Positions 9,968 to 28,879 are shown, counted from the first letter of the stretch. The stretch: 64,000 nt of DNA from an uncultured Candidatus Competibacteraceae bacterium (GCA_964578885.1 CAZOEO010000019.1:245-64244); one strand, 5' to 3'. The notes: generated from the sequence alone by a model not told the origin. Numbers and translations are program-made.

Positions 9968-10447
9968 TTATTCAGCAGAGGCCTCAGTGGTATCAGCCGC
10001 AGCAGATTCCACTTTTGCTTTAGCACCACCAGCACGACGGGTACGTTTCTTTGTACCTTCTGACTTTTTGCCGTCTTTGGTATAAGTGGCATTGAAGTCT
10101 ACCAGTTCAATCATGGCCATTTCAGCATTGTCACCAGCGCGAGGTCCCATTTTAATAATACGGGTATAACCGCCAGGACGTGTAGCTACAGCGGCAGCCA
10201 CATCACGGAACAATTCAGTAACTGCTTCCTTGTTTTGCAGGTAGCTGAACACCAAACGACGAGAGTGCGTGGTGTTGTCCTTTGATTTGGTAATCATTGG
10301 CTCCACATACTTACGTAGTTCGCGTGCTTTCGCCACCGTAGTGGTGATACGCTTGTGGGTAATCAAAGAAATCGCCAGGTTGGCTAAAAGGGCCTGCCGA
10401 TGTGCGGCTTTACGACCCAAATGATTCACTTTTCTTCCGTGTCTCAT
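9968..10447 (-). CDS. rplQ: 50S ribosomal protein L17, with a Lys/Ala/Glu-rich C-terminal extension.
   Basis: [25 protein letters not shown]... signature. Confidence 0.95.
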
Positions 10448-10479
10448 GACTTAGTTTTTATGAAACCACCAATGGTGCT

Positions 10480-11472: not shown

Positions 11473-11494
11473 ATGCGGTGTAATCGGTTAGAAA

Positions 11495-12100
11495 TTATTT
11501 GGAGTAAAGTTCCACGATAAGTTGTTCGCGGATATTTTCAGGAATTTGCTCGCGACGTGGTGCCATAATAAAGGTACCTTCCATGGCGGCTTGATCCCAG
11601 CTCAACCAATCAAAACGGTGAGGAGACAATCCCAATGAATTAGTAATAACAGAAAGGGACTTTGAACGCTCACGTACACCCACTTTATCACCTGGTTTCA
11701 AGGAAAAAGAAGGAATACCAACCAATTCACCATTAACGGTAATATGTTTGTGGGTAACGAGCTGACGAGCGGCGTCTCTGGTGGGAGCCACACCCATACG
11801 ATATACTACGTTATCCAAACGGCTTTCACAAAGGATTAAAAGGTTTTCACCAGTAACCCCTTTCAGGGTGGAAGCTTTCTCAAACAATTTTCTGAATTGA
11901 CGCTCCAGAATACCATAAGTATACTTAGCTTTTTGCTTCTCCATCAACTGGATAGCATATTCAGACTGCTTCTTTCTGCGCTTAGAAGGGCCATGCATTC
12001 CGGGAGGATATGCTTTGCGCTGCAGCGACTTGGAAGGACCGAAAATGGGTTCCCGAAAACGACGGGCTATCTTGGCTTTAGGGCCTCTATAACGTGCCAT
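11495..12100 (-). CDS. rpsD: 30S ribosomal protein S4.
   Basis: [15 protein letters not shown]... Confidence 0.95.
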
Positions 12101-12142
12101 GACAATTTACTTAATTAGATGAATAAATGTGAAGGTAAAGGA

Positions 12143-12526
12143 TTAAACGCGACGACGTTTCGGCGGACGGCAGCCATTGTGAGGCATAGGCGTAATGTCT
12201 ACGATTTCGGTCACCTCAATCCCAGCATTATAGATATACCGAATAGCGGACTCCCTTCCTGCTCCAGGGCCTTTCACATACACTTTAACACGACGTAATC
12301 CCAAATCATACGCTTCTTTAGCACACTCAGTGGAGGCCATTTGAGCGGCGTATGGGGTGTTTTTCTTGGATCCTTTAAAACCCATTTTACCCGCACTGGA
12401 CCAAGTGATGACTTGCCCTTGCGCATTGGTAAGAGAAATGATGATGTTGTTGAAAGTAGCATTGATATGCGCTTCTCCAACCGCATCCACTTTCACATTT
12501 TTCTTGCTGACTTTTTGCTTTGCCAT
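12143..12526 (-). CDS. rpsK: 30S ribosomal protein S11. Start set at MAKQK; the track ORF begins 2 codons earlier at a TTG.
   Basis: ...[20 protein letters not shown]...[12 protein letters not shown]. Confidence 0.93.
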
Positions 12527-12535
12527 GATCAAAGA

Positions 12536-12913
12536 TTACTTGGTAGCTTTCTTCTTGTTTGCTACGGTTTTTTTCTTGCCTTTCCGTGTGCGGCAATTGT
12601 TTTTGGTTTTCTGTCCACGTACAGGCAATCCCACACGATGACGAATACCACGGTAACAACCAATATCCATCAGACGCTTGATGTTGAGCTGCACCTCAGA
12701 ACGAAGCGCACCTTCTACCTTAACTTCTGCATTAATGATATTACGAATCCGAGCCAATTGGTCATCGGTCCATTCGCTTACTTTTGTATTGAAATCAATT
12801 TCAGCTTTCGTTAAAATGCGCTGTGCCATTGGACGGCCAATGCCGAAAATGTAAGTGAGTCCTACCTCACCTCGCTTGTTCCTTGGAAGATCTATACCTG
12901 CGATCCTTGCCAT
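12536..12913 (-). CDS. rpsM: 30S ribosomal protein S13.
   Basis: [14 protein letters not shown]... Confidence 0.95.
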
Positions 12914-12945
12914 ACTGTGATGTTTCTGGGATTGTTGTATTAAAA

Positions 12946-13062
12946 TTAACCCTGACGTTGTTTAAAACGGGGATTCTTTTTGTTGATGACGTAGAGCTTT
13001 CCATTCCGACGCACAATTTTGCACTCGGCGCTACGCTTTTTAATCGATGCTTTTACTTTCAT
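12946..13062 (-). CDS. rpmJ: 50S ribosomal protein L36 (38 aa; below the ORF-track size cutoff).
   Basis: Hand translation of the minus strand: [38 protein letters not shown]. Confidence 0.9.
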
Positions 13063-13067
13063 GGCGC

Positions 13068-13286
13068 TTATTTGTAACGGTATACAATCCGACCCTTTGT
13101 AAGGTCGTAAGGTGACATTTCTACACGAACTTTATCCCCTGGTAAAATCTTAATGTAATGCATTCGCATTTTACCGGAAATATGGGAGACAATAATATGA
13201 CCATTCTCTAATTCCACACGAAACATGGCATTAGATAAAGCCTCTATAATTGTTCCATCTTGTTCTATTGAAGGCTGTTTAGCCAT
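13068..13286 (-). CDS. infA: Translation initiation factor IF-1.
   Basis: 72 aa S1-like OB fold, ...[35 protein letters not shown]. Confidence 0.95.
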
Positions 13287-13289
13287 TCT

Positions 13290-14096
13290 TTATATATAAG
13301 TTAAGTTCGTATTCTTTTGTATCGCTTCTTCAATGGCAGCATAAGATGAAAGTAATTCAAACTTTCCGTCTCTCACTACCACATTGTGTTCAAAATGGGC
13401 GCTGGGTTGTTTGTCTCTGGTCACAATGGTCCATTGATCACTTAACACGCGCACGTGACGTTTCCCGAGATTAATCATCGGTTCAACCGCCAACACCATT
13501 CCTGATTTCAACAAAACACCACGGCCCCTTGAACCAAAATTTGGTACCTCAGGAGCTTCATGCAAATTGGCGCCTAAACCATGACCGACCAATTCGCGCA
13601 CTACACTCATTCCATTGGATTCTGCATGTTTCTGAACAGCGAAACCAATATCACCGGTATAATTACCAGCCTGAGCCTGAGCTACACCCAAGTAAACACA
13701 TTCCTTTGTCACAGACAAAAGCTTAGCCCATTGGGGAGAAATTTCACCTATAGCAAAAGTATATGCGAAATCTCCGTGGTAACCTTTGCGTTGAATGCCA
13801 ATATCCACGGTAACAATGTCACCGGATTTCAGAGGCGTTTTTCCTGGAAAACCATGCACTACCTGTTCGTTTACACTATAACAAATAGAGAAAGGAAAAC
13901 CATGAAAACCTTTGAAGGAAGCTTTGGCCTGATGATCTTGAATGAAAGTGTCTACCCACGCATCCACCTCCAAACCGGTCACACCGGGCTTAAGCCTACT
14001 GGCTACAAGCGCAAGGGCTTGTTCAACAAGTAAAGAACTCTGCCTACAAAGAGCAACCTCTTCTTCGGACTTTATAATAGGCACTCCACTGGCCAT
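13290..14096 (-). CDS. map: Methionine aminopeptidase, type I.
   Basis: 268 aa, pita-bread metal ligand pattern, in the conserved position after secY. Confidence 0.9.
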   Translation of the reverse strand: MASGVPIIKSEEEVALCRQSSLLVEQALALVASRLKPGVTGLEVDAWVDTFIQDHQAKASFKGFHGFPFSICYSVNEQVVHGFPGKTPLKSGDIVTVDIGIQRKGYHGDFAYTFAIGEISPQWAKLLSVTKECVYLGVAQAQAGNYTGDIGFAVQKHAESNGMSVVRELVGHGLGANLHEAPEVPNFGSRGRGVLLKSGMVLAVEPMINLGKRHVRVLSDQWTIVTRDKQPSAHFEHNVVVRDGKFELLSSYAAIEEAIQKNTNLTYI

Positions 14097-14101
14097 AGAC
14101 C

Positions 14102-15430
14102 TTACATGGAGGGATAATTAGCCGGCATTCTTCCCTGCAGTTTTCCGGATTTCATCAATCCATCAAACTGACGCATTTTGAGGTGAGAATCGATTTGAGC
14201 CAAAGTGTCTAACACTACACCTACCATGATCAACAGAGAAGTACCTCCGTAAAACTGAGCAAAAGCAGGGTTCACATTGGCGAGAATGGCAAAGGCAGGT
14301 AAAATAGCTACAACTGCAAGGAAAATAGATCCAGGAAGAGTAACACGAGAAATAACCGCATCGATGTATTCAGCGGTCTTTTTTCCGGGCTTTACACCAG
14401 GAATGAAAGAACCTTCACGTTTCAACAAATCTGCCATTTGCTGAGGATTCACAACAATAGCGGTGTAGAAATAAGTGAAGACAATAATCAGCATGGCAAA
14501 AGTGAAGTTGTAGGCAAAAGAAGTGTAATCACTAAAGTTGCGCACAAACCAATTGGGTTCATCAGAAACGAAACCCGCCAACGTAATAGGAATAATCATA
14601 ATTGCCTGAGCGAAAATGATAGGCATTACACCGGATGAATTCACTTTTAATGGAAGGTAGCTTCTGGCACCCGTTGTAAAACGGTTTCCAACCATGCGTC
14701 TGGCAGCGTGAATAGGTATTTTACGCACACCCTGAACAAGCATAATGCTTAGGATGATTACCAGTAAAAGAATCACCATTTCCAAAAGGAACATAATCAT
14801 ACCTCCACCACCTGGTTCAACTTTACTTCTGAACTCTGTCAAGAGACCTGAAGGCAAAGAAGCAATAATACCAATCATGATAATCAAAGAAGTACCATTC
14901 CCAATACCTCGATCGGTAATTTTCTCACCTAACCACATCACGAAAAGTGTACCAGCAATGATGATGGTTACCGCGAGAATCCACCAGGAAGTGGTATCGG
15001 GGTAAACACCGGCTGGTATGTACTGGGTAAGGTAACCAGGCGCCTGAAAAGCAGTAATCAAAACGGTGAGACCACGGGTGATCTGCGTGAGTTGATTCCT
15101 GCCACTTTCATCTTTCTGAAGTTTTTGAAAATAGGGAACTGCAACGCCCAAAAGCTGAATGATAATAGATGCCGATATATAAGGCATAATACCAAGAGCG
15201 AAAATGGAGGCGTTAGAAAACGCACCACCAGTAAGCAGGTTAATGAGGTCAATCAAATTGGCGTCATCACGCGCTTCCAACTTGGAGGCTAAAAGCTCCG
15301 TATCGATACCTGGCAGGGTAATATAGGAACCCAGGCGATACACTGCCACCAAAATCATGGTGAAAGTGATACGATCACGGAGTTCCTGTATACTCCAGAT
15401 TTCTTTAAGACGTTGAACTAAGTTCTTCAT
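14102..15430 (-). CDS. secY: Preprotein translocase subunit SecY.
   Basis: 442 aa, 10-TM profile, in the conserved position. Confidence 0.95.
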   Translation of the reverse strand: MKNLVQRLKEIWSIQELRDRITFTMILVAVYRLGSYITLPGIDTELLASKLEARDDANLIDLINLLTGGAFSNASIFALGIMPYISASIIIQLLGVAVPYFQKLQKDESGRNQLTQITRGLTVLITAFQAPGYLTQYIPAGVYPDTTSWWILAVTIIIAGTLFVMWLGEKITDRGIGNGTSLIIMIGIIASLPSGLLTEFRSKVEPGGGGMIMFLLEMVILLLVIILSIMLVQGVRKIPIHAARRMVGNRFTTGARSYLPLKVNSSGVMPIIFAQAIMIIPITLAGFVSDEPNWFVRNFSDYTSFAYNFTFAMLIIVFTYFYTAIVVNPQQMADLLKREGSFIPGVKPGKKTAEYIDAVISRVTLPGSIFLAVVAILPAFAILANVNPAFAQFYGGTSLLIMVGVVLDTLAQIDSHLKMRQFDGLMKSGKLQGRMPANYPSM

Positions 15431-15444
15431 GGAAAAAGGTGAGA

Positions 15445-15891
15445 TCAGAGCGTTTGAGCAACACCACCTGCTTGCTCAATAGCAACACGTGCAGATGATG
15501 AAAAAGCATGAACGGTTACGTTGAGTTTGGCTTTTAATTCACCACTACCCAAAACCTTGACCAAATCGTTTTTAGAAACCAAACCGTGTGTGCGGAGGGT
15601 CTCCAAGCTGATTTCAGACAAGCCATGATTTTCAGACAAACGTTGAAGAACGTCTAAATTGAGTGGCTTATAAGAAACACGGTTGAAGTTGGTGAAACCG
15701 AATTTAGGTAAACGACGCTGAATTGGCATCTGACCACCTTCGAAACCAATCTTCTTGGAATAACCTGAACGAGACTTGGCACCTTTATGGCCACGTCCGG
15801 ATGTACCACCTTTGGTAGAACCTTCTCCACGTCCAACGCGACGTCCGGTATGTGTTGCTCCTGTTGCAGGAGATAACTGATTCAATTTCAT
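15445..15891 (-). CDS. rplO: 50S ribosomal protein L15. Start set at MKLNQL; the track ORF extends 11 codons further.
   Basis: MKLNQLSPATGATHTGRRVGRGEGS... Confidence 0.9.
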   Translation of the reverse strand: MKLNQLSPATGATHTGRRVGRGEGSTKGGTSGRGHKGAKSRSGYSKKIGFEGGQMPIQRRLPKFGFTNFNRVSYKPLNLDVLQRLSENHGLSEISLETLRTHGLVSKNDLVKVLGSGELKAKLNVTVHAFSSSARVAIEQAGGVAQTL

Positions 15892-15901
15892 AATGCAAAA
15901 A

Positions 15902-16081
15902 TCAAATGTGTTCAACGGTAACAAGGTGAGAAACTTTGCTAACCATACCCATGATTTGAGGGGTAGCTTCGTGTTCTACAACTTGGTTCATTTTCCGAAT
16001 ACCGAGGGCAATAAGTGTAGCCTTTTGACGCTCGGGGCGGTCGATACCGCTCTTTACTTGTTTAATACGAATTTTGGCCAT
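15902..16081 (-). CDS. rpmD: 50S ribosomal protein L30 (59 aa; not in the ORF track).
   Basis: Hand translation: MAKIRIKQVKSGIDRPERQKATLIALGIRKMNQVVEHEATPQIMGMVSKVSHLVTVEHI. Confidence 0.9.
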   Translation of the reverse strand: MAKIRIKQVKSGIDRPERQKATLIALGIRKMNQVVEHEATPQIMGMVSKVSHLVTVEHI

Positions 16082-16091
16082 GATACCCAGA

Positions 16092-16610
16092 TTATCCGTT
16101 AAATACTTTTTCCAATTTCACGCCACGCTCTTGAGCTACTGTGTATGCATCACGAAGTTCAGCAAGCGCTTCAAAGGTAGCTTTCACTACATTGTGCGGG
16201 TTGGAAGAACCTTTAGATTTGCATAACACATCTTTTACACCAACCGATTCAAGCACAGCACGCATAGCACCACCAGCGATAACACCGGTACCGGAAGCAG
16301 CTGGCTTCATGAATACACGTGATGAACAGTATTTAGCAGTAATTTCGTGAGGAATAGATCCATTGCGGATAGGAACACGAATTAGGTTCTTTTTGGCATC
16401 GTCGATACCTTTCTGAATAGCTTCAGTAACCTCATTGGCTTTTCCCAATCCATAACCGACTACCCCATTCTCATTTCCAACTACCACAATGGCGGCAAAG
16501 GAGAAGTGGCGACCACCCTTGGTCACTTTAGTTACGCGGTTGATTGCCACCAACCGGTCTTTCAATTCAATTTCGCTGGATTTAACCCGCTTTACGTTTG
16601 TCTGTGCCAT
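16092..16610 (-). CDS. rpsE: 30S ribosomal protein S5.
   Basis: ...[36 protein letters not shown]... Confidence 0.95.
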
Positions 16611-16617
16611 AGTGATA

Positions 16618-16971
16618 TCAGAAATTCAATCCACCTTCACGGGCGCCATCAGCCAAAGCCTTAACCCGTCCATGATACAAATATCCACCGCGATCGAAGG
16701 TTACCGCTTGGATGCCTAATTGTTGAGCCCGGTTAGCGAGCATTTTGCCTACCTCAAAAGAGCGGGCAGTTTTAGTACCTTCACCTGAAAAAGATTTTTC
16801 AGCGGAAGATGCATGTGCTAAGGTTTTACCAGACAAATCGTCGATAAGCTGAGCATAAATATCGCTATTGCTGCGGAAAACAGACAAACGGGGACGGGCT
16901 GCAGTGCCCTTCACACCTTTGCGAATACGAAAACGGATACGTTGCCTTCTGGCGGATTTATTGAATGCCAT
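16618..16971 (-). CDS. rplR: 50S ribosomal protein L18.
   Basis: 117 aa, conserved position and motifs. Confidence 0.93.
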
Positions 16972-16990
16972 TTCTGTCGGGATTCTTCAA

Positions 16991-17545
16991 TTATTTACCT
17001 GCTGATTTACCAGCTTTTCTTCTTAATACTTCGTTCTTGAATCGGATACCTTTTCCTTTGTATGGTTCAGGCTTACGTAAAGAACGGATTTTAGCGGCCA
17101 CCTGACCCAGCAACTGAAGGTCGCTAGAGTTCATGACAATACGTGGGTTCTTACCTTTTTCAGTAATAGTTTCCACAAGGATTTCCTTTGGTAACTCAAT
17201 CACGTAGTTGTGAGAATAACCAAGGGTAAGATCCAGGATTTGCCCTTTGGCTTCAGCACGATAACCTACACCAACCAGCTCTTGCTCTACAGTGAAGCCG
17301 GTGGATACACCTTTCACCATGTTATTAACCAGAGAACGGTATAGACCATGCATTGAACGGTGACGTTTCTGATCTGTAGCACGTGAAACGGTGAGCACTG
17401 ATCCTTCCACTTGGAAAGAAATAGCGGGGTCAACCGTTTGGTGTAGTTCTCCCTTGGGGCCTTTTACAGTAACCACATTGGCAGGAGAGACTGAGAACTG
17501 CACGTTGGCAGGAAGTTGAATAATAGCTTTTCCTATGCGTGACAT
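16991..17545 (-). CDS. rplF: 50S ribosomal protein L6.
   Basis: MSRIGKAIIQLPANV... Confidence 0.95.
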   Translation of the reverse strand: MSRIGKAIIQLPANVQFSVSPANVVTVKGPKGELHQTVDPAISFQVEGSVLTVSRATDQKRHRSMHGLYRSLVNNMVKGVSTGFTVEQELVGVGYRAEAKGQILDLTLGYSHNYVIELPKEILVETITEKGKNPRIVMNSSDLQLLGQVAAKIRSLRKPEPYKGKGIRFKNEVLRRKAGKSAGK

Positions 17546-17556
17546 ACTTTCTCAGA

Positions 17557-17949
17557 TTAATAGATGGAACAAAGTACTTCGCCACCCACGTTAAGGGAGC
17601 GAGCTTGTTTATCGGTCATCACACCACGTGAAGTGGAGATAATGGCAATACCCAAACCATTTAACACACGGGGCATTTCAGTAGCACCCTTGTAGCTGCG
17701 TAAACCAGGGCGTGAGATACGCTTTAAGTTTTTGATGGCAGGCTGACGGGTAGCCGGATGATATTTAAGGGCAATTTTAATTGTACCTTGAACGGTATTG
17801 TCCTCAAATTTATAGTTAAGAATATAACCTTGATCCATGAGGATTTTAGTCATTTCTTTTTTGATATTCGATGCGGGAATCTCTACCACACGGTGACGGG
17901 CCTTAATGGCATTCCGCAAACGTGTCAGATAATCTGCTATTGGATCCAT
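17557..17949 (-). CDS. rpsH: 30S ribosomal protein S8.
   Basis: [14 protein letters not shown]... Confidence 0.95.
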
Positions 17950-17970
17950 GTCTAATAATGCTTAACTAAT

Positions 17971-18240
17971 TTACCAGGAGGCTTTGGTTACACCAGGAAT
18001 CTTGCCTTCATTGGCCATTTTACGGAATAATACACGAGAGATTCCAAACTGTCTCATGTATCCTCTAGGTCTACCTGTTAGTTGGCAACGATTGTGCAGG
18101 CGCACAGGCGATGAATTTTTGGGTAAACGGGCTAAGGCTTGATAATCACCTTCCTCTTTCAAAGCGGCACGCTTAGCTGCATATTTGGCGACAAGACGCT
18201 GACGTTTGCGTTCTTTGGCCTTCATTGATTCTTTTGCCAT
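17971..18240 (-). CDS. rpsN: 30S ribosomal protein S14 (long, 89-aa form).
   Basis: ...[39 protein letters not shown]. Confidence 0.95.
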
Positions 18241-18245
18241 GACCC

Positions 18246-18809
18246 TTATTCCTGGTTTTTATTCACATCATTGAACGGCATACCGAAACCTCTCAGTAGT
18301 GCGTAAGCTTCGGCGTTGGTTGGAGCAGATGTCACAAAAGTGATGTCCATACCATTGATTTTCAAAACTTTATCGATGTCGATTTCAGCGAAAATCAATT
18401 GTTCGGGGATACCGATATTATAGTTACCTCTGCCGTCGAATCCTTTGGCGTTTACACCTTTAAAATCACGGATCCGGGGAAGTGATATAGAGATAAAACG
18501 ATCCAAAAACTCATACATGTTGTTCCCGCGAAGGGTTACCATGGCCCCAATGGGCATACCTTTTCTGAGTTTAAAATTCGAAATGTCCTTTTTAGACTTG
18601 GTTGAAACTGCTTTCTGACCAGAGATCAGAGACATTTCAGCCACCGCCATTTCAATGATGCGTTTGTCTGAAACGGCAGAACCGAGTCCTTGATTAAGGA
18701 CAATCTTTTTCAGGCGTGGAACCTGCATGGGAGATTTATACCCAAACTCCTTCTGAAGGGCGGGTACAATTTCATCCCTGTACTTTTGTATAAGTCTTGG
18801 TGCGTACAT
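18246..18809 (-). CDS. rplE: 50S ribosomal protein L5.
   Basis: 187 aa, conserved position and motifs. Confidence 0.95.
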
Positions 18810-19135
18810 TACTTAATAACTTCTCCTGTTTTCTTTGCAAAGCGAACCAGTTTACCATCCACTGATTTGCGACCAACACGTGTAGGTTGGTCTTTCACCA
18901 ACAACATGATGTTGGAAATATGGATAGGTGCCTCTTTCTCCACGATTTTTCCTTCTGGAGAGGCAGGGGTTGGTTTGGTATGGCGTTTCACCATATTAAC
19001 ACCTTCCACCGTTACGCGCATGGTTTCGCGGTTAATTGCTTTCACAAGACCTTTTGAGCCTTTATGAACGCCGGCAATCACCATTACCTGATCACCACTT
19101 TTAATCTTAAGTTTAATGCCCATGATATGGTTCAA
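18809..19135 (-). CDS. rplX: 50S ribosomal protein L24.
   Basis: [20 protein letters not shown] (KOW motif). Confidence 0.93.
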
Positions 19136-19504
19136 TTAAAGCACTTCGGGTGCCAGTGATACGATTTTGGTAAATTGCTTTTCACGCAGTTCACGTGCCA
19201 CCGGACCAAAAATCCTGGTTCCACGCATTTCGCCCTGGTTATTCAACAGAACAACTGCGTTATCGTCAAAGCGGATGTAAGAACCATCCAAACGACGAAT
19301 TTCTTTACGGGTTCTTACCACAACAGCTTTTGTAACAGCACCCTTTTTCACGTTTCCTGAAGGGAGGGCATCTTTTACTGAAACTACAATGGTGTCTCCG
19401 ATGGAAGCATACCTTTTCTTGGTACCGCCCAAAACGCGGATACACAATACCTCTTTGGCACCTGAATTATCCGCTACACGTAATCTTGATTCCTGCTGTA
19501 CCAT
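19136..19504 (-). CDS. rplN: 50S ribosomal protein L14.
   Basis: [27 protein letters not shown]. Confidence 0.95.
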
Positions 19505-19506
19505 GG

Positions 19507-19770
19507 TTACTTAGCTCTTTCAATAATTTCAACTAAACGCCAGTTCTTGCTTTTGCTCAGAGGACGAGTTTCCATAATGCGCACGGTATCACCGATATTA
19601 CATTCGTTTTTCTCATCATGTGCATGGAACTTAGAGGTAAGGGTGAGAAACTTCCCGTATTTTGGGTGTTTCACCTTACGCTCAACGGCTACCGTAATGG
19701 TCTTGGTCATCTTATTGGATACCACCACTCCGGTTTTTTCTTTCCTGCTTTTTCTAACGGTCAATTCCAT
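19507..19770 (-). CDS. rpsQ: 30S ribosomal protein S17.
   Basis: ...[29 protein letters not shown]... Confidence 0.93.
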
Positions 19771-19786
19771 GACGCAAATCTATATT

Positions 19787-19858
19787 CAATGAAGGATACC
19801 CCTGAAAACGGGCTTGCAAAGGTGCACGTAATTTTTGAAATATCCAACATCAAGTTGT
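19787..19858 (-). promoter_or_regulatory. Conserved ~72-bp promoter-like element, copy A, upstream of rpsQ. On the minus strand it reads AT-rich tract, inverted repeat TTAACAAcTTGatGTTGG, TTTG -33-like box, conserved spacer GCAAGCCCGTTTTcAGGGG, TA-rich -7-like box.
   Basis: Three-way alignment with 24824-24882 and 28048-28129. Confidence 0.6.
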
Positions 19859-19896
19859 TAATTTTTTTATGATTATTTGAATTATCACCTGCTATA

Positions 19897-19935
19897 AAAA
19901 AAAAGCCATGTGGTGAAACACATGGCCAGTATTCA
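19897..19935 (-). terminator. Rho-independent terminator after rpmC (gccatgtgtttcaccacatggc + T9 on the minus strand), inside the classical S10-spc junction.
   Basis: Perfect 8-bp stem plus a 9-U run, 10 nt after the rpmC stop. Confidence 0.65.
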
Positions 19936-19946
19936 TGTCAGGTGGA

Positions 19947-20135
19947 TTATCCTTTGCGACGGTTTTGTTCCGTAAGCAGTTGGGCAATCACTTTCCTTGA
20001 AGCTTTGAGCACACCCGGATTCTCAAGAGTTGAGATAGCATGGGTCATGCGAAGCTTTTGCAGATTAGCACGCTCAGCGGTCAACTTATCAGTTAATTCA
20101 GCGTCTGTGATATCTTTAATTTCAGCGTATTTCAT
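19947..20135 (-). CDS. rpmC: 50S ribosomal protein L29.
   Basis: 62 aa, ...LRMTHAIS... Confidence 0.9.
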   Translation of the reverse strand: MKYAEIKDITDAELTDKLTAERANLQKLRMTHAISTLENPGVLKASRKVIAQLLTEQNRRKG

Positions 20136-20148
20136 GATCTGCGAAGAT

Positions 20149-20568
20149 TTAAGCTTGATAATCCCTGCGGATTAAAAACTTGGTTTTTACGGGAAGCTTT
20201 TGAGCTGCAAGGCGAAGCGCCTCTTGTGCCACCTCAGTAGGTACGCCGTCAATTTCAAAAAGGATACGACCAGGCTTTACGATAGCTGCCCAGTATTCGG
20301 GGTTACCTTTACCTTTACCCATCCGTACTTCGGCAGGCTTTTTCGTAATAGGTTTATCTGGGAAAATGCGAATCCAAACTTGACCTTCCCGTTTCATGTA
20401 ACGGTTCATGGCTACACGAGCGGCTTCTATTTGACGACCGGTCATCCAGGCATACTCAAGGCTTTTCAGGGCGAAAGATCCGAAAGAGATCTCTGCACCA
20501 CGCTGAGCCACACCTTTCATCCGGCCTTTCTGGACCTTCCGGTATTTTGTTCTTTTAGGCTGAAGCAT
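20149..20568 (-). CDS. rplP: 50S ribosomal protein L16.
   Basis: [19 protein letters not shown]. Confidence 0.95.
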
Positions 20569-20589
20569 GATTGTACTCCTTAATGGTTA

Positions 20590-21312
20590 TCAATTCCGTT
20601 TACGTTTTGGCCTGGGAGCGGTAACTCCTCCTGGCGCTTTGGATGCTGCTGATTTACTGGCGGGGATATTGGGGCTTAAATCCCGTTTACCATACACCTC
20701 ACCCAACATAATCCATACTTTAATTCCGATACGACCATAAGTAGTATGCGCTTCGGCTAAAGCATAATCAATATCCGCTCTGAACGTGTGCAGTGGAATA
20801 CGACCTTCCTTGAAATTCTCGGAACGTGCAATCTCTGCACCAGCCAAACGACCAGAAATAGATACTTTAATACCTTCTGCACCCATACGGATGGTAGAAG
20901 CAATGGCCATTTTAATGGCACGACGGTAAGAAACACGACCTTCGATTTGGCGGGCAATCGAATCGGCAACAAGACGTGCATCCATTTCAGGACGTTTAAT
21001 CTCGGCGATGTTGATACCCACCTCTTTCTTGGTGAGTTTCTTTAATTCTTCACGAAGTTTTTCAACCTCCTGCCCCATTTTACCAATGATAATACCAGGA
21101 CGTGCGGTGTGAATAGTGATGGTTACCAGTTTGTGGGTACGTTCAATAATTACACGTGAAATGCTGGCCTTAGCCAAACGAGCTTTGATGTAGTTACGAA
21201 TGGTTTCGTCTTCAACAAGCTTTTCAGTGTACTTTTTACCACCGTACCAGTTGGATTCCCAACCACGGATGTAACCTAAACGGTTGCCAATTGGATTTGT
21301 CTTTTGTCCCAT
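20590..21312 (-). CDS. rpsC: 30S ribosomal protein S3. Start set at MGQKTNPIG; the track ORF extends 17 codons upstream.
   Basis: [24 protein letters not shown] plus KH domain. Confidence 0.93.
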
Positions 21313-21316
21313 GATA

Positions 21317-21733
21317 TTATGCGTTGGCGGGGGTTTCAGTTTCAGTACGACGTCCCAACTCAAGGGTTACATGGTTCGAACGTTTGCGAACACGGTGTGC
21401 ACGACCCTGAGGGGCTGGCTGCACGCGCTTCAACATTCTTCCACCGTCCACAAAAATGGTTTTGATGAAGAGATTTTGTTCGTCTGCACGCTGTCCACTT
21501 TTCACTTCAAAGTTCGCCAAAGCGCTCTTAAGAAGTTTCTCTAAAGGACGGGCAGCCGCCTTAGGAGTAAAGTGAAGGATATCCAAAGCTTTATTGGCAT
21601 CCATACCACGTACTAGATCTGCCACTAAACGCATTTTGCGCGGTGAAGTGGGGAAATTATTGAGTCTGGCAAAATACCGGGACTTATTGGCTTCTTTTCT
21701 GGCGTCTGCGGCCAATTTTTTACGCTTACCCAT
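21317..21733 (-). CDS. rplV: 50S ribosomal protein L22 (true start uncertain; the ORF has an N-terminal extension).
   Basis: ...[32 protein letters not shown]... Confidence 0.9.
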
Positions 21734-21751
21734 GATACGTTCCGGTTATAA

Positions 21752-22033
21752 TTAACGTTTACCTTTATCTTTTTTCTGTCCGGCATGTCCTCTCCAGGTA
21801 CGGGTAGGAGCAAATTCGCCTAACTTATGACCTACCATGTTTTCTGTTACATATACAGGAATATGTTTATTCCCATTATGAACAGCGATGGTATGCCCAA
21901 CGAAATCGGGCGTAATCATGGAACGACGAGACCAGGTTTTAATCACCGTCTTTTTACCAGACTGATTTTGGTCCAAAACTCGTTTCTCGAGTTTAAAGTC
22001 TACAAATGGACCTTTTTTTAATGAACGAGCCAT
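21752..22033 (-). CDS. rpsS: 30S ribosomal protein S19.
   Basis: [12 protein letters not shown]... Confidence 0.95.
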
Positions 22034-22038
22034 ATAAA

Positions 22039-22866
22039 TTATTTCTTGCGGCGTGCTACAATATACTTAGAGGAGGCCTTGCGTGGGCTGCGGGTTTTAT
22101 AACCTTTGGCCGGAATTCCATTCCGTGAACGTGGGTGTCCACCGGAAGCTCTTCCTTCACCACCACCCATTGGGTGATCCACAGGGTTCATAGCCACACC
22201 GCGTGTACGAGGTCTGCGCCCCAACCAGCGGTTACGACCAGCTTTACCGTGTACGGTAAGGTTATGATCTGCATTACTAACAGCACCAATAACGGCGCGA
22301 CATGTAACCAGCACCATCCGTTGCTCACCGGAAGGAAGACGCAAAACTGCGTATTTTCCTTCACGCGCCGCTAATTGAGCCGAAGCACCAGCTGAGCGAC
22401 AAATAGCAGCACCGCGACCAGGCTGAAGTTCAATATTGTGCACATTGCTACCAAGCGGAATTTCGGAAAGAGGTAAACAATTTCCAAGATCAGGTGATGC
22501 ACCCGGACCTGAAACAACGGTTTGCCCTACTTGCAATCCTGTTGGCGCAATAATGTACGCTTTTTCACCATCTGCGTAAGCCAACAAGGCAATACGAGCT
22601 GTACGATTTGGATCGTATTCAATGGTCTTCACAGTGGCTGGAACACCATCTTTGGTCCGCTTGAAATCTACAATACGGAGGCGCTTTTTATGACCACCAC
22701 CTAAATGGCGCATAGTCATTTTTCCGCTACCATTACGACCTCCAGAACGTTTTTTTACAACGGTCAGGGATTTTTCTGGAGCATTAGGCGCAGTAACCTC
22801 TTTAAAATCAGAAATTACTTTAAAACGAGTACCGGGAGTTACCGGGCGAAACTTTCTTAAACCCAT
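22039..22866 (-). CDS. rplB: 50S ribosomal protein L2.
   Basis: 275 aa, ...[15 protein letters not shown]... Confidence 0.95.
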
Positions 22867-22870
22867 GATA

Positions 22871-23164
22871 TTATAGATTTGCGAAGAGGTCGATTTGATC
22901 GCCTTCTTTCAGGGTTACCACTGCTTTCTTAAATGCGTCTGTGTGACCTTTAAGGATACCGCTTTTGCTATAGCGTACCACTTCACGACCACTGTAAATC
23001 ATGGTATTGATGCTTTGAACTTTAACACCATAATAGCCTTCAATGGCAGAACGAATCTGAGCCTTGTCCGCTTTCCGATTTACAATAAAGCCATACCGGT
23101 TGAACTTTTCACCGGCGGCAGTCATTTTCTCTGTGAGAATAGGCTTGAGAATGATATGGCTCAT
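22871..23164 (-). CDS. rplW: 50S ribosomal protein L23.
   Basis: 97 aa, in the conserved position. Confidence 0.9.
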
Positions 23165-23165
23165 G

Positions 23166-23792
23166 TCAGAAGCTTAAAAGGTTTTCAACAACAGGCAGGG
23201 TGCTTTCCGCCATAATCACACGTTCAGCATCCATCACTTCATACGTATTCAGCTCAGAAGCAGAAATTACGTTGGCAGAAGGAATGTTGCGGGAAGAAAG
23301 GTATACGTTACCAACTGCATCCGGCAGAACCAACAATACTTTCTTGTTGTCTACATTAAAGGATTTCAAGAAGGAAACGAAGGCCTTGGTTTTAGGAGCT
23401 TCGAAGTTGAAGTCTTCCACGACAGTAAGACGATCTTGTGTTACTACGTAGCTAATCGCAGACCTACGGGCTACGCGCTTCAACTTTTTATTTAATTTAA
23501 AATGGTAATCTCTGGGTTGTGGACCAAAAATTCTACCTCCATCACGGAACAATGGGTTTTTGATAGAACCTTTACGTGATCCACCAGTACCTTTTTGTTT
23601 GTGAAGTTTGCGTGTAGAGCCATGTACCTCGTTCCGTTGTTTGGTTTTGGAAGTACCTTGACGGTTATTGGCCAAAAACTGCTTTACATCGAGCCAAATG
23701 GCGTGATCGTTAGGCTCGGAGGCAAACAAATCATCTTTAAGAGAAACCTTGCGACCGGTTTCTTTACCGGCGAGATTATATACTGCTAATTC
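23166..23792 (-). CDS. rplD: 50S ribosomal protein L4. Start set at MELAVYNLAGKETGRKV; the track ORF extends 8 codons and would overlap rplC.
   Basis: Conserved L4 N-terminus. Confidence 0.9.
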   Translation of the reverse strand, partial: ELAVYNLAGKETGRKVSLKDDLFASEPNDHAIWLDVKQFLANNRQGTSKTKQRNEVHGSTRKLHKQKGTGGSRKGSIKNPLFRDGGRIFGPQPRDYHFKLNKKLKRVARRSAISYVVTQDRLTVVEDFNFEAPKTKAFVSFLKSFNVDNKKVLLVLPDAVGNVYLSSRNIPSANVISASELNTYEVMDAERVIMAESTLPVVENLLSF

Positions 23793-23805
23793 CATGATAT
23801 CCTCC

Positions 23806-24423
23806 TTACTTTTCAATCATTACATAAGACCCTTTGTGCCCTGGTATATTACCGGAAACAATGAGTAAATTTTGTTCAGGAATCACTTTCAACACACGCA
23901 GGTTTTGTGCTTTTACACGGGCATTACCCATTTGTCCAGCCATGCGCATACCTTTAAATACACGTGATGGGAAAGACGATGCGCCCAAAGAACCTGGGTG
24001 ACGTTGACGGTTGTGCTGACCATGGGTGCGTCCACCAACCCCGGCAAATCCATGGCGTTTTACAACACCCTGAAAACCGCGGCCTTTTGAGGTGCCTACG
24101 ACATCCACGAAATCACCTTCCGCAAATAACTCCACGGATAGGGACTGGCCCAAAGTAACCTGGGCCTCGAAACCTTTGAATTCAGCCACTTTTGCCATAG
24201 GTTTTACACCTGCTTTGGTAAAGTGACCGATTTCAGCCTTGGTGGCGTGTTTCTCTTTTTTCTCCTCGAAACCAAGTTGAATGGCTTCGTAGCCATCTTT
24301 TTCCTCGGTTTTAATCTGGGTGACCACACAAGGACCGGCTTGAATCACTGTACAAGGTACAATGCGTCCGTTCTCGTTGAAGAGGCTGGTCATCCCAATT
24401 TTCTTGCCTATCAGACCTGACAT
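23806..24423 (-). CDS. rplC: 50S ribosomal protein L3.
   Basis: [39 protein letters not shown]. Confidence 0.95.
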
Positions 24424-24485
24424 AGCATTTGAATTATCCGCAGCGGAGTCCTGACCAGCCAGTCTGAACTCTTACGGGGGTTAAA

Positions 24486-24791
24486 CTACACTTTAATTTC
24501 AACTTCTACTCCTGAAGGGAGTTCTAATTTCATAAGGGCATCGATAGTCTTGGTAGAAGAGCTATAGATGTCCATCAACCGTTTGTAAGAACAAAGCTGG
24601 AATTGCTCACGAGATTTCTTGTTCACGTGAGGAGAACGAAGGACGGTGTAAATGCGCTTGTGGGTAGGAAGCGGAATCGGTCCATTTACCACAGCACCAG
24701 TCGCCTTTACCGTTTTCACGATTTTCTCCGCAGACTTGTCCACCAGGTTGTAGTCGTACGACTTCAATTTGATGCGGATTTTTTGGCTCAT
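24486..24791 (-). CDS. rpsJ: 30S ribosomal protein S10.
   Basis: [25 protein letters not shown]... Confidence 0.95.
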
Positions 24792-24823
24792 TTTGTTTTC
24801 TTCAGTTATATAATACCCCTAAA

Positions 24824-24882
24824 AACGGGCTTGCAAAAGTGCAAGTTTATTTTTAAAAAACCAACAGTAAGGTGTTAATTTT
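24824..24882 (-). promoter_or_regulatory. Conserved promoter-like element, copy B, upstream of rpsJ (the S10 operon promoter).
   Basis: Alignment with copies A and C; sits between the fusA terminator and the rpsJ start. Confidence 0.6.
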
Positions 24883-24924
24883 GAAAAGAATATTTTCAGC
24901 CTTATTTACCAACCCTGTTGAAAC

Positions 24925-24960
24925 AAAAAGGGGCCGCCTTTCGGGGCCCCTCCGTAACAT
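24925..24960 (-). terminator. Rho-independent terminator after fusA (aggggccccgaaaggcggcccct + T-run on the minus strand).
   Basis: GC hairpin plus tttttgttt right after the fusA stop. Confidence 0.65.
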
Positions 24961-24966
24961 TTATGT

Positions 24967-27096
24967 TTAGGCGTTTACCTTGCCTTTTACCTTTGCAATT
25001 ACCTCTTCTACGATATTGCGTGGAGCTGGATCGTAATGGCTAAACTCCATGGTAGAAGCCGCACGACCGGAGGTAATGGTACGTAAAGAAGTTACGTAAC
25101 CGAACATTTCACTCAGCGGAACTTTGGCTTTAACCACTTTGGCATTACCGCGGCTATCCATTCCTTCGATCTGCCCACGACGACGGTTCAAGTCACCTAC
25201 TACGTCACCCATGTTCTCGTCCGGTGTAACCACTTCCACTTTCATGATAGGCTCAAGAAGGATAGGCTTGGCTTTTGGCAAAGCTTCGCGATAAGCCATT
25301 TTGGCACACAATTCAAACGAAAGTGAATCGGAGTCAACCGCGTGATAAGAACCATCCAGCAAGGTTACTTTGATACCGGTCAAAGGGAAGCCGGCCAATA
25401 CACCATTACTTAAAGAGGCTTCAAAACCTTTTTGAACAGATGGAATGTATTCGCGAGGAATGTTACCACCTTTCACCATATCGATGAATTCCAGACCTAC
25501 TTTTTCGTCGGAATTCGGTTCAATAGTTACAACGATATCGGCGAACTTACCACGACCACCCGTTTGCTTCTTGTACACTTCACGGTGTTCAACGCGCCCG
25601 GTGATGGCTTCTTTGTAGGCCACCTGAGGTGCACCCTGGTTACATTCTACTTTGAATTCGCGACGAAGACGGTCAAGGATAATTTCAAGGTGAAGTTCAC
25701 CCATACCAGAGATAATGGTTTGCCCGGAATCCTCATCGGTATGTACGCGGAAGGTTGGATCTTCTTCAGCGAGTTTGAACAAAGCGTTACCAAGACGATC
25801 AAGGTCAGCCTGAGTTTTAGGCTCAATAGCCACACCAATTACAGGCTCAGGGAACGACATGGCTTCCAAAGCGATAGGCTTATTCTCATCGCAAAGCGTA
25901 TCACCAGTACGGATATCTTTGAAACCAACAGCAGCACCGATATCACCAGCTTCGATGAAGTCGATAGGGTTTTGCTTATTGGAGTGCATTTGGAACAAAC
26001 GTGAGATACGTTCTTTGTTTCCGGTCCGAACATTTAAAACGTATGAACCAGCATCCAAACGACCGGAGTACATTCGGAAGAAGCAAAGACGTCCTACATA
26101 TGGATCGGTGGCAATTTTGAAGGCAAGTGCGGCCATGGGTTCAGAAGCACTAGGCTTTCTGATTTCTGGCTCTTCCGTATCCGGGTTGGTACCAACAACT
26201 GCCTCAAGGTCCATTGGGGATGGCAGATAACGAATAACTGCATCCAACATGGTTTGCACACCTTTATTTTTGAAAGATGAACCACAAAGCATTGGCGTGA
26301 TGGCCATAGAAAGGGTAGCTTTCCGAATGGCATTGTGAATTTCATCCTCAGTAAGGCTGTTGGGATCGTCGAAGAATTTCTCCATCAAAACATCGTCACT
26401 TTCAGCAACGGTCTCGAGCATGTAATTGCGATACTTTTCTACGTCTTCAACTACGTCAGCAGGAATATCTACTACAGTATATCTCGCACCTTCAGAAGCG
26501 TCGTCCCAGATAATGGCCTGCATACGAACCAGGTCTACCACGCCCTTAAATGTTTCCTCAGATCCAATAGGAATCTGAAGAGGAACTGGCTTGGCACCTA
26601 AACGTTCTTTTACCTGACCTACTACATTGAGGAAGTCGGCACCAGCGCGGTCCATTTTGTTTACGAAACCGATTCGTGGAACGCTGTATTTGTTCATCTG
26701 ACGCCATACGGTTTCAGACTGAGGCTCTACACCACCTACGGCGCAGAACAAAGCTACAGCTCCATCGAGTACACGTAAAGAACGTTCTACTTCAACAGTA
26801 AAGTCTACGTGACCTGGCGTGTCAATAAGGTTGATCTGATATTGCTTGGTATCAGGGGTGCTTTGACCTTGTTTGGTCGGGAAGTTCCAGAAGCAAGTAG
26901 TTGCGGCAGAGGTAATGGTGATACCCCGCTCTTGTTCCTGTACCATCCAGTCCATGGTAGCAGCTCCATCATGCACCTCTCCGAGCTTATGGGTTTTACC
27001 AGTATAATAGAGAATGCGTTCGGATGTGGTGGTTTTACCTGCGTCGATGTGTGCAGAGATACCAATATTTCGGGTGAACCTTAGGTCACGTGCCAT
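24967..27096 (-). CDS. fusA: Elongation factor G.
   Basis: 709 aa; [11 protein letters not shown]1 motif, DTPGHVDF, in the conserved position after rpsG. Confidence 0.97.
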
Positions 27097-27121
27097 GATT
27101 GAAAGTAGGCTAAACGGTTAA

Positions 27122-27592
27122 TTAAAAGCGAAAATGAGAGAAGGCCTTGTTGGCTTCGGCCATACGGTGGGTGTCTTCTTTTTTCTTGTAAGCACCACCT
27201 TCATTATTGAAAGCAGCAACCACCTCGTTGGCTAATTTCTGAGCCATGGATTTATCGTTGCGCTTGCGGGCAGCAAGAATCATCCACTTCATTCCCAGAG
27301 AAAGTCTACGAGAAGGACGAATTTCCTGAGGAATTTGGAAAGTAGAACCACCTACACGGCGAGAGCGAACCTCTACGGCAGGAGTTACATTTTCCAAAGC
27401 ACGCTTCCATACATTAACGGGTACTTCTTCATTGATACGTTTTTCAACGATATCCATAGCACCGTAAAAAATGTCGTAAGCAGTTTGCTTTTTACCTTGC
27501 AACATCAGGTTATTCACAAATTTGGTCACGAGGGTATCATTGTACCGGGGATCAGGTAAAATGATCCGTTTTTTTGGTTTCGCTTTTCTCAT
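27122..27592 (-). CDS. rpsG: 30S ribosomal protein S7.
   Basis: 156 aa, conserved position and motifs. Confidence 0.95.
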
Positions 27593-27610
27593 TTGGAGAC
27601 TGTAAGGAAA

Positions 27611-28012
27611 TTATTTTTTTACTGGGGCTTTGCCACCTTTATCTTTTGGACGTTTTGTACCATACTTGGAACGACGCTGGTTACGGCCGTTTACACCGGC
27701 TGTATCCAATGCACCGCGCACAATGTGGTAACGTACGCCTGGTAGATCTTTTACCCGACCACCGCGGACAAGCACAATAGAGTGCTCTTGAAGGTTGTGA
27801 CCTTCTCCGGGGATGTAGGCGTTGACCTCACGTCCGTTGGAAAGACGCACCCTGGCTACTTTACGCAGAGCAGAGTTCGGTTTCTTCGGGGTGGTGGTGT
27901 ACACCCTTACACATACGCCACGACGTTGTGGGCATGAATCAAGAGCAATGGACTTGCTCTTTTTCACCACTTTCTCGCGTCCTTTACGGACTAATTGTTG
28001 AATTGTCGGCAT
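27611..28012 (-). CDS. rpsL: 30S ribosomal protein S12.
   Basis: [12 protein letters not shown]...[11 protein letters not shown]... Confidence 0.95.
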
Positions 28013-28047
28013 TCTCTAAATTCGTTATCCGAGTAATTGCTTTATAA

Positions 28048-28129
28048 TACCCCCAAAAACGGGCTTGCAAAGGTGCTGGTTTTTTCTTTAATATCCAACA
28101 ACCCTTTGTTAATTTTTTTAAGGAAGAAA
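28048..28129 (-). promoter_or_regulatory. Conserved promoter-like element, copy C, upstream of rpsL (the str operon promoter).
   Basis: Alignment with copies A and B. Confidence 0.6.
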
Positions 28130-28150
28130 TTGAAAGGGCTGTGATTACCT

Positions 28151-28879
28151 TTGTACACGAAAAATAATTCCACTTTGTACACCCTTATTACCGGAGCCAC
28201 AGAAGGCATTGGAAAATCACTGGCCTATCAGTTTGCCGCAGCAGGACATGACCTGGCTCTGGCTGCAAGGTCTGGCGACCAACTCATCCTCCTTAAAAAG
28301 AACCTGGAACAAAGATACAACATCAAAGTCTTTTTTCGTGCCGCTGATTTCAGTCGGAAAACGGAAGCCATTCTCTGGGCGGAACAGGTGAAAAAAGAAA
28401 TGGGTTCGCCCACGGTTCTGATTCATAATGTAGGTATGTTTGCCCAACATCCCCTGTTTCATCAGGGAGAAAGTGACCTGGAATCGATGCTGCGTACCAA
28501 CTTATTGGCCGCCCACGTAATTACAGCGGTATTTAGACAAGGCATGATGTCGCGGGGAAATGGCCATATCTTTAATATGGTGTCCTCTGCAGCCGTACGC
28601 AGCCGAAAAGATGCACCTGCCTACTCCATTTCAAAAGCCGCACTTTTGGCTTGGTCCGATGCACTCTTCGAAGAAATGAGACCGCATGGAATCAGAGTAA
28701 CAGCCGTGCTTCCGGGACCAGTGTACACCCACGCCTGGAAAGATGTACCTCTTGATGCGGCACGTTTTATTCATCCGGACGAAGTCGCCAGAATGATATA
28801 TGAATGTTTTCGCACCTCCGGCATGGCCGTAACCAGCCGGCTGGATTTGCGCAGTATGGACCAACAACTAGATCCTTAA
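28151..28879 (+). CDS. Short-chain dehydrogenase/reductase (SDR) family oxidoreductase.
   Basis: TGATEGIGKSLA Rossmann motif; YxxxK (YSISKAAL). Confidence 0.85.
   Translation: MYTKNNSTLYTLITGATEGIGKSLAYQFAAAGHDLALAARSGDQLILLKKNLEQRYNIKVFFRAADFSRKTEAILWAEQVKKEMGSPTVLIHNVGMFAQHPLFHQGESDLESMLRTNLLAAHVITAVFRQGMMSRGNGHIFNMVSSAAVRSRKDAPAYSISKAALLAWSDALFEEMRPHGIRVTAVLPGPVYTHAWKDVPLDAARFIHPDEVARMIYECFRTSGMAVTSRLDLRSMDQQLDP

Follow-up and report, generated by a model that had tools for sequence, protein, structure and literature searches.

Background

Promoters read by the sigma-A factor of Bacteroidota (sigma-ABfr) have the form TTTG-N19-TAnnTTTG (PMC6847099, PMC9723704). In Flavobacterium the -7 element spans positions -12 to -5 (PMC9723704, PMC6847099), with T-12, A-11, T-8, T-7, T-6 and G-5 nearly invariant in Flavobacterium/F. 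johnsoniae promoters, and sigma-70-type boxes are not used by the Bacteroidota RNA polymerase (PMC6847099). At the other end of the 5' region, 5'-terminal stem-loops such as those of Escherichia coli ompA and papA, and others in Bacillus subtilis, shield bacterial mRNAs from 5'-end-dependent decay, RppH requiring at least two unpaired 5' nucleotides (PMC3997798). A conserved structure in the 5' untranslated region (UTR) is also the mark of autoregulatory ribosomal-protein leaders, including S10/L4, str/S7 and spc/S8 of E. coli, the Rfam r-leaders and the 20 candidates of PMC7247131. Here we compare with these systems a ribosomal-protein locus lying in a 64,000-nucleotide stretch of DNA (hereafter the window; GCA_964578885.1, CAZOEO010000019.1:245-64244) filed under an uncultured Candidatus Competibacteraceae bacterium, in which an element of about 75 bp stands in front of rpsL, rpsJ and rpsQ.

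From the comparison of this element with related Bacteroidota loci, we consider it probable that it joins a sigma-A promoter to a 5' stem-loop, the latter likely acting as an mRNA stabiliser, and that the whole was triplicated to keep three transcription units co-expressed. In one Flavobacteriales clade, to which the window belongs, the best reading of the sequences is that the ancestral Bacteroidota rpsL promoter module was copied in front of rpsJ and rpsQ.

Results

Three copies of one element at the heads of three ribosomal units

The minus strand of the window contains a 30-nt core (GCACYTTTGCAAGCCCGTTTTYRGGGGTAT) three times, at 19796-19825, 24813-24842 and 28047-28076, with at most one mismatch per copy, compared to 0.00 matches in shuffles of the window. 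In a minus-strand alignment the similarity extends over about 75 bp per copy (19796-19870, 24813-24887 and 28047-28121) and follows the order A-tract, TTAACA, N6, TGTTGG, a 19-nt AT-rich stretch, CACYTTTG, CAAG and GCCC-loop-GGGT-A. It stops directly past GGGGTA; from there, the 25-35 nt that lead up to each ATG show no relation among the copies. All three lie on the minus strand, 38-51 nt 5' of genes that Pfam identifies as S12 (rpsL), S10 (rpsJ) and S17 (rpsQ). A sequence-only reading of this DNA had already noticed the three sites, which hold; its second region begins at 24813, not 24824, and the gap between AACA and TGTT is six nucleotides in all three copies. The features of the locus are as follows, the promoter labels being putative.

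28113-28121, minus strand: copy 3 (rpsL), A-tract TTAAAAAAA, at about -56 to -50 by alignment; UP-element-like, with a putative function
28095-28112, minus strand: copy 3, TTAACA-N6-TGTTGG, with the -33 box TTGG at 28098-28095, which aligns with TTTG/TTG of relatives
28076-28094, minus strand: copy 3, 19-nt AT-rich spacer between -33 and -7, of the same length in relatives
28068-28075, minus strand: copy 3, -7 box CACCTTTG (consensus TAnnTTTG; C for T at -12), which aligns with TAC(A/C)TTTG
28049-28064, minus strand: copy 3, hairpin GCCC-GTTTTTGG-GGGT (RNAfold, -6.5 kcal/mol); predicted +1 at about 28063-28066
28013-28048, minus strand: copy 3, remainder of the rpsL leader, unconserved in the copy alignment and A-rich before the ATG at 28012
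24879-24887, minus strand: copy 2 (rpsJ), weaker A-tract TTTTCAAAA (copy alignment)
24861-24878, minus strand: copy 2, TTAACA-N6-TGTTGG, with the -33 box TTGG at 24864-24861 (from the sequence)
24834-24841, minus strand: copy 2, -7 box CACTTTTG (core scan)
24815-24830, minus strand: copy 2, hairpin GCCC-GTTTTTAG-GGGT (RNAfold); predicted +1 at about 24829-24832, leader of about 38 nt to the rpsJ ATG at 24791
19862-19870, minus strand: copy 1 (rpsQ), A-tract ATAAAAAAA (copy alignment)
19844-19861, minus strand: copy 1, TTAACA-N6-TGTTGG, with the -33 box TTGG at 19847-19844 (from the sequence)
19817-19824, minus strand: copy 1, -7 box CACCTTTG (core scan)
19798-19813, minus strand: copy 1, hairpin GCCC-GTTTTCAG-GGGT (RNAfold); predicted +1 at about 19812-19815, leader of about 42 nt to the rpsQ ATG at 19770
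24920-24950, minus strand: terminator after fusA, GGGGCCCCGAAAGGCGGCCCC followed by TTTTTGTTTC, read from the sequence; equivalents follow fusA in clade relatives (locus L098)
19894-19927, minus strand: terminator after rpmC, GGCCATGTG-TTTCAC-CACATGGCT followed by T9 (terminator scan, 9-bp stem)
24967-28012, minus strand: unit 1, rpsL-rpsG-fusA (Pfam S12, S7 and EF-G)
19947-24791, minus strand: unit 2, rpsJ to rpmC, the S10 operon (Pfam S10 and L29, open reading frame (ORF) map, tblastn map)
9968-19770, minus strand: unit 3, rpsQ-rplN to rpoA-rplQ, the spc and alpha genes (Pfam S17 and L14, ORF map)

Motif, nhmmer and covariance-model searches gave no fourth copy in the 64-kb window, and the latter two gave none in the interior of unit 3. 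When 185,579 species genomes were scanned for exact matches to the 20 invariant specified bases, 12 matches were obtained in eight metagenome-assembled genomes (MAGs) of Flavobacteriales type, some of them mislabelled Competibacteraceae, and every one of the 12 lay 42-68 nt 5' of rpsL, rpsJ or rpsQ. A profile search with the element added one diverged copy, before rpsJ, in two of the eight matching genomes and nothing else. Likewise, nhmmer and a covariance model run over about 0.9 Mb of related loci matched essentially at the heads of rpsL, rpsJ and rpsQ. The near-invariance of the core among loci L001-L012 is partly a product of their retrieval by exact match, and the protein-anchored loci L098 and L099 were added to remove this bias.

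A generic intergenic repeat, or a miniature mobile element sitting by chance in these gaps, would likewise leave a genome with several near-identical copies that each contain a small inverted repeat. The hallmark of such dispersed repeats or miniature inverted-repeat transposable elements (MITEs) is, however, many copies beside unrelated genes, and the element does not have it: there are only three copies per 64 kb, in one orientation and at the same distance to the start codon, and the matches in the genome collection are confined to the same three gene heads. Other Bacteroidota moreover have a homologue of the element in single copy, as their rpsL promoter, and inspection by eye revealed no terminal repeats or target duplications. 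A mobile repeat is effectively refuted, and with it one of the two outcomes that the sequence-only reading had named as fatal to its own proposal of a promoter-bearing module common to the three units. That proposal is borne out, with the module specific to the heads of these ribosomal units.

Assignment of the promoter boxes

Relatives were gathered as protein-anchored loci via S17 and as 80 metagenomic loci via S10, and their genes were mapped by tblastn. In a set of about 49 distinct Bacteroidota sequences from upstream of rpsL, nearly all have TTTG or TTG, 19 nt, TAC(A/C)TTTG and a C, the canonical -33/-7 arrangement of the phylum. The homologous rpsL promoters of about 45 other Bacteroidota conform to it. 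The window's CACCTTTG aligns exactly with the 8-mer TAC(A/C)TTTG, and its TTGG with the relatives' -33 box; TTGG and the 19-nt spacer are found in all three copies, in the same register as the TTTG of relatives. Bases A-11, T-8, T-7, T-6 and G-5 of the -7 element are likewise present in each copy (CACCTTTG or CACTTTTG), and in the protein-anchored loci of the clade CACCTTTG, TTGG and a CCC/GGG stem are all retained. A-runs at -56 to -46 accompany about one third of the Bacteroidota rpsL promoters. The best reading of the repeats is that of a Bacteroidota-type sigma-A promoter with TTGG as putative -33 box and CACYTTTG as putative -7 box. When the other genes of the window were used for calibration, only three upstream regions contained TAHHTTTG, in a set in which the gene starts are uncertain.

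The sequence-only reading had placed the boxes differently, taking the TTTG of the core as -33 box, GCAAGCCCGTTTTTGGGGG as a conserved spacer, the TA after the G-run as -7 box and AACA-N6-TGTT as an operator. The distance from TTTG to TA, 17-18 nt, is indeed near the usual 19, and most copies have a TA after GGGG, but no copy has TTTG at positions 5-8 of this TA-rich box, which reads TATTATAA, TATCCTTC, TACAATGT, TAAAACAT and others. In an E. coli-type scan TTTGCA-16-TATTAT scores 9/12 in two copies, yet such sigma-70-type boxes are not those of the Bacteroidota RNA polymerase (PMC6847099). The A-rich tract would fall at -40 to -60 and resemble an UP element; in the relatives, however, TAnn stands before the aligned TTTG and completes a perfect -7 box, and the matching -33 box lies 19 nt farther upstream. 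Loci L074, L028 and L062 have leaders of just 24-31 nt beyond TTTG, which leave no room for a promoter farther downstream and cannot fit the alternative layout. The dyad arms are kept in most clade members while the N6 between them varies, but L002, L003, L012 and L099 keep the module with a dyad that is degenerate or gone. The supposed -33 TTTG is thus the 3' half of the -7 box, read as TAC(A/C)TTTG in relatives, and the boxes had been set about 26 bp too far downstream. With the -7 box assigned from the relatives, the supposed invariant spacer, GCCC-GTTTTTR-GGGG, therefore lies 3' of it, at about +1 to +16, and not between the boxes. We regard this layout with its operator as highly improbable and as the least supported of three alternatives, the others being a trans-acting factor and a GC-rich discriminator, both considered below.

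Two further candidates were rejected: a sigma-54 promoter, for which the GG/GC spacing is wrong, and boxA, of which only TTAACA matches, located 5' of the promoter. In copy 2 only, the -7 box lies inside a perfect 6-bp palindrome, CTTGCA-CTTT-TGCAAG (24830-24845, minus strand), which the terminator scan flagged because the T-run of the hairpin comes next; copies 1 and 3 have TGCA..TGCA only, and the palindrome is probably incidental. A divergent short-chain dehydrogenase gene has a canonical -7 box (TACCTTTG, 28148-28155, plus strand) some 25 nt away from the rpsL module, with two copies of a direct repeat, CTTTGTACAC, after the box (28148-28190, plus strand). The listed start of this ORF at 28151 (TTG) overlaps the -7 box, so that the true start is probably downstream, near 28177.

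The inverted repeat

The dyad AACA-N6-TGTT, which the sequence-only reading took for an operator, has its centre near -40.5 and shares bases with the -33 box. The right arm is not constant (TGTTGG, TATTGG or TTTTGG), and the N6 between the arms differs among species and among paralogues. It is absent from L002, L003 and L012, one subclade that still has the module, and degenerate or lost also in L099. In the comparison set it occurs in 4 of the 49 rpsL promoters, two of which are from the window species, and is otherwise absent outside the clade. The two half-sites are hence not kept together across orthologous and paralogous copies, and a role of AACA-N6-TGTT as operator is possible but unsupported. 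Conservation across species, which had been put forward as a check on both parts of the element, holds for the segment after the -7 box as a structure with differing stems, and fails for the inverted repeat.

A hairpin after the -7 box

A structured 5' leader, the other possibility raised from the sequence alone, finds support in a hairpin present at this position in most Bacteroidota rpsL leaders. In the relatives, 2-5 nt separate TTTG from the hairpin, which would start at about -3 to +1 relative to the predicted transcription start. The stems include CCCC-AAAAAAT-GGGG, CTCTT-AAA-AAGAG, CCTC-AAATGA-GAGG, CTCAAA-GAGCG-TTTGAG and CCTTTA-AA-TAAAGG, and some are longer. Among 48 distinct rpsL leaders, 41 have a hairpin with a stem of 4 bp or more that begins 0-6 nt past TTTG, against 29.1 +/- 2.7 in dinucleotide shuffles (maximum 38 in 300), with 29 different stems among the leaders that bear one. 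The mean minimum free energy of the first 30 nt was -5.89 kcal/mol, against -3.23 +/- 0.25 kcal/mol in shuffles. Dinucleotide shuffles were used in place of a non-ribosomal control of TTG-N18-20-TAnnTTTG sites, which was unfair, being dominated by a conserved rplD coding stretch.

The MAFFT alignment of the leaders was ungapped and not structure-aware, and the leaders were re-aligned with a covariance model. In this structure-fitted alignment 77.6% of cells pair, double-changed cells number 39 compared to 13 +/- 3.7 in shuffles (0/500), and covariation scores 0.30, compared to no more than 0.16 with slid partners. The position of the hairpin is thus kept while its stem undergoes compensatory base changes. 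A covariance model of the -7 box plus hairpin, run over 896 kb, matched the rpsL heads and, in the window's clade, also the rpsJ and rpsQ heads; about eight remaining matches are marginal (E 0.2-0.6). No Rfam family matched the element, either in the window and 12 related loci with the gathering threshold or in five clade loci at E<=1, and an S12/rpsL leader for Bacteroidota is not among the published ribosomal-leader candidates (PMC7247131). The small conserved hairpin of the rpsL leader is therefore found in neither Rfam nor that survey. An attenuator was dropped as a candidate, there being no U-run after the hairpin.

Since loops vary, also within the clade in protein-anchored samples (AATTTTA, TTTTTTA, CGAATTT), and stems differ freely between lineages, the constraint on the segment looks structural rather than sequence-specific. 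The loop is U-rich in the window and A-rich in relatives; it matches the close relatives' loop when that is reverse-complemented, the loop of L057 being TAAAAAAGC, with reverse complement GCTTTTTTA, against GTTTTTA in the window, which suggests that the palindrome was flipped in place.

With the promoter as assigned above, the segment from +1 to +20 could instead be a recognition site, either an RNA operator through which a ribosomal protein or another trans regulator throttles all three units together, or a DNA palindrome, CCC-N7-GGG, bound by a dimeric repressor. The segment heads all three units and was co-copied and kept while the remainders of the leaders diverged, but the core invariance in L001-L012 comes in part from exact-match retrieval. 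CCC/GGG stems dominate across many lineages, yet others have CTCTT/AAGAG, CCTC/GAGG, CTCAAA/TTTGAG or CCTTTA/TAAAGG. For a DNA palindrome a loop flip such as that from L057 (TAAAAAAGC to a GCTTTTTTA-like loop) would be neutral; the loops varying within the clade nonetheless fit a structural constraint, and the negative results in Rfam ribosomal leaders and in PMC7247131 argue against a described RNA operator. We consider a recognition site unlikely.

Discriminators sensitive to growth rate are a feature of proteobacterial rRNA and ribosomal-protein promoters. The GC-rich segment between the -7 element and +1, CAAGCCC in the window and CAGTCCCC or CAGCCC in relatives, might similarly be a discriminator or initially transcribed region that makes the promoters responsive to growth-rate signals, e.g. 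(p)ppGpp or the level of the initiating nucleoside triphosphate, with the hairpin secondary. Most lineages do have a GC-rich block at -4 to +4 in otherwise AT-rich promoter regions, and the C at -12 would, from what is generally known of stringent promoters, weaken the open complex and ease regulation. However, the CTCTT/AAGAG lineages are AT-rich there (CAAACTCTT), without such a segment, and still retain a complementary 3' arm, and the complementary G-run 7-8 nt downstream would be left unexplained. This makes the discriminator an improbable explanation of the conserved segment.

A more speculative possibility, to which we give a low probability, is that the hairpin serves as a phylum-wide mRNA tag for the ribosomal-protein superoperon, and that a dedicated protein or RNase reads it and sets the mRNA level according to growth. 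It would be a bacterial counterpart of the logic of eukaryotic 5'-terminal oligopyrimidine (5'-TOP) mRNAs and, if true, the clade had to copy the tag along with the promoter on splitting the operon.

Splitting of the operon in the clade

The ribosomal cluster of the window has the gene content and order of the classical str-S10-spc-alpha cluster (rpsL-rpsG-fusA, rpsJ...rpmC, rpsQ...rplQ), but its blocks are split by terminator-plus-promoter cassettes, and they are physically apart in some members of the clade. Elsewhere in Bacteroidota, over about 70 loci, fusA and rpsJ are 4-41 nt apart, and rpmC and rpsQ 4-36 nt; in the window's clade both distances are 168-197 nt. The relatives have the module at rpsL only; the clade has a terminator and a module copy at both junctions, and in the window intrinsic terminators precede copies 1 and 2.

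In L098, fusA is separated from rpsJ by two unrelated genes and rpmC from rpsQ by an SBP gene on the opposite strand, with terminators after both fusA and rpmC. The same opposite-strand SBP gene precedes rpsQ in L010, unrelated genes lie upstream of rpsJ in L099, and in MAG BA4 a 23S-5S rRNA operon precedes rpsQ, rpmC being followed by another gene. As the units are physically separated in these clade members, the rpsJ and rpsQ units must be self-promoted, with the promoter at the element.

The opposite-strand SBP_bac_3-type gene (about 270-297 aa) adjoins the rpsQ module upstream in several clade members (L007:1-491 and 672-1565; L010:2261-3145; L098:8908-9720) and is a recurrent neighbour of the split point. 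In L007 the end of a 23S-5S rRNA operon lies just beyond it.

Other observations in the window and related loci

In about 28 Flavobacteriaceae-like loci the gap between rpsJ and rplC (S10-L3) measures 120-520 nt, compared to 62 nt in the window (e.g. L018:3400-3698, L021:6304-6563, L027:6304-6448, L039:6304-6462, L045:6304-6478 and L085:4606-4755). It contains a strongly conserved block, ACATGTCC(G/T)GAGC...GGAAAAACGG, and then a terminator-like hairpin, CAGGGTTGAA..TTTTAACCCTG, with a T-run just before rplC. The block has no match in Rfam. It has the appearance either of an attenuator or ribosomal leader, hitherto undescribed, that serves rplC-rplD, or of a tiny ORF from a conserved ATG.

In a few other lineages (L091:11150-11650; L097 and L043 for the rpsQ-rplN gap), the gaps at rpmC-rpsQ and rpsQ-rplN are unusual in measuring 82-117 nt; short tandem-like repeats (e.g. 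GATTGCA, AAATCCGAAAT, AAAATCA) occupy them, and they have no -7 box. The first ORF of the window (5-1738, plus strand), which begins MDRFNYHYSASNNRLLYVSD, resembles a fragment of an RHS/YD-repeat-type protein and is unrelated to the ribosomal element.

Discussion

The promoter part of the module appears to belong to the known -33/-7 class, from whose consensus it deviates at one base. Like sigma-ABfr promoters, it has TTGG 19 nt before an 8-mer that matches 7/8, an AT-rich spacer and a place upstream of highly expressed genes, and the orthologous promoters of relatives match perfectly; unlike them, it has C for the near-invariant T at -12 clade-wide and occurs three times in one cluster. With the 5'-terminal stabilisers (PMC3997798) the hairpin shares its predicted start within 0-3 nt of the 5' terminus of an abundant mRNA and its preservation as a structure with compensatory changes. 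It differs in being much shorter (4-7 bp) and in being tied phylum-wide to the rpsL head, and its start and its effect on half-life are putative. From the ribosomal-protein leaders, with which it has the conserved 5' UTR structure in common, it departs in the lack of an Rfam match, in heading three operons that use three different regulators in E. coli, in a stem sequence that is not kept between lineages, and in a size too small for mimicry of an rRNA site.

Several observations weigh against a promoter joined to a stabilising stem-loop. A T at -12 is missing, C being found there in every copy of the window's clade. The window hairpin is weak when taken alone (4 bp, -6.5 kcal/mol, z about -1.5 to -1.9) and not significant by itself, and 4-7 rpsL leaders have no hairpin. 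The covariation counts, finally, were made on a structure-fitted alignment, and such fitting biases the counting of pairs in favour of the structure. We nevertheless hold the combination of sigma-A promoter and 5' stem-loop to be the probable explanation.

Under this explanation, transcription is predicted to begin 3-5 nt past the -7 box CACYTTTG, and the first approximately 16 transcribed nucleotides, GCCC-N8-GGGU, would fold into a stem-loop at the very 5' end, with the stem starting at about -1/+1 when the G of the box is set at -5. Most likely, the hairpin would protect the transcript from 5'-end-dependent decay, because it would leave too few unpaired 5' nucleotides for the pyrophosphohydrolase or for 5'-sensing RNases. 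The rpsL module would have been copied before rpsJ and rpsQ and terminators added after fusA and rpmC, turning the str-S10-spc superoperon into three units with the same promoter. Because the promoter is shared, the same transcriptional input and the same 5' end are expected for the three units. Joint copying of promoter and hairpin may in this way have provided equal rates of synthesis and an equal 5' end, so that stoichiometry would be kept after the split.

The present comparison corrects the promoter assignment for the three ribosomal units and brings to light a small 5' stem-loop at one place in rpsL leaders across Bacteroidota. Triplication of the module together with operon fission is a lineage-specific form of a known kind of system, and the evidence does not demand a new mechanism. 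The locus offers a clean natural case of an operon that underwent fission while its parts stay co-regulated, because promoter and leader were copied as one module; once split, the pieces are free to move apart in the genome. Bacteroidota do without Shine-Dalgarno-led initiation, and the control of their ribosomal-protein synthesis is largely unknown. Because this control is so poorly understood, a conserved element at the 5' end of the main ribosomal-protein transcript offers a concrete experimental handle and is, as a strong promoter combined with a 5' stabiliser, a candidate part for genetic tools in Flavobacteriia.

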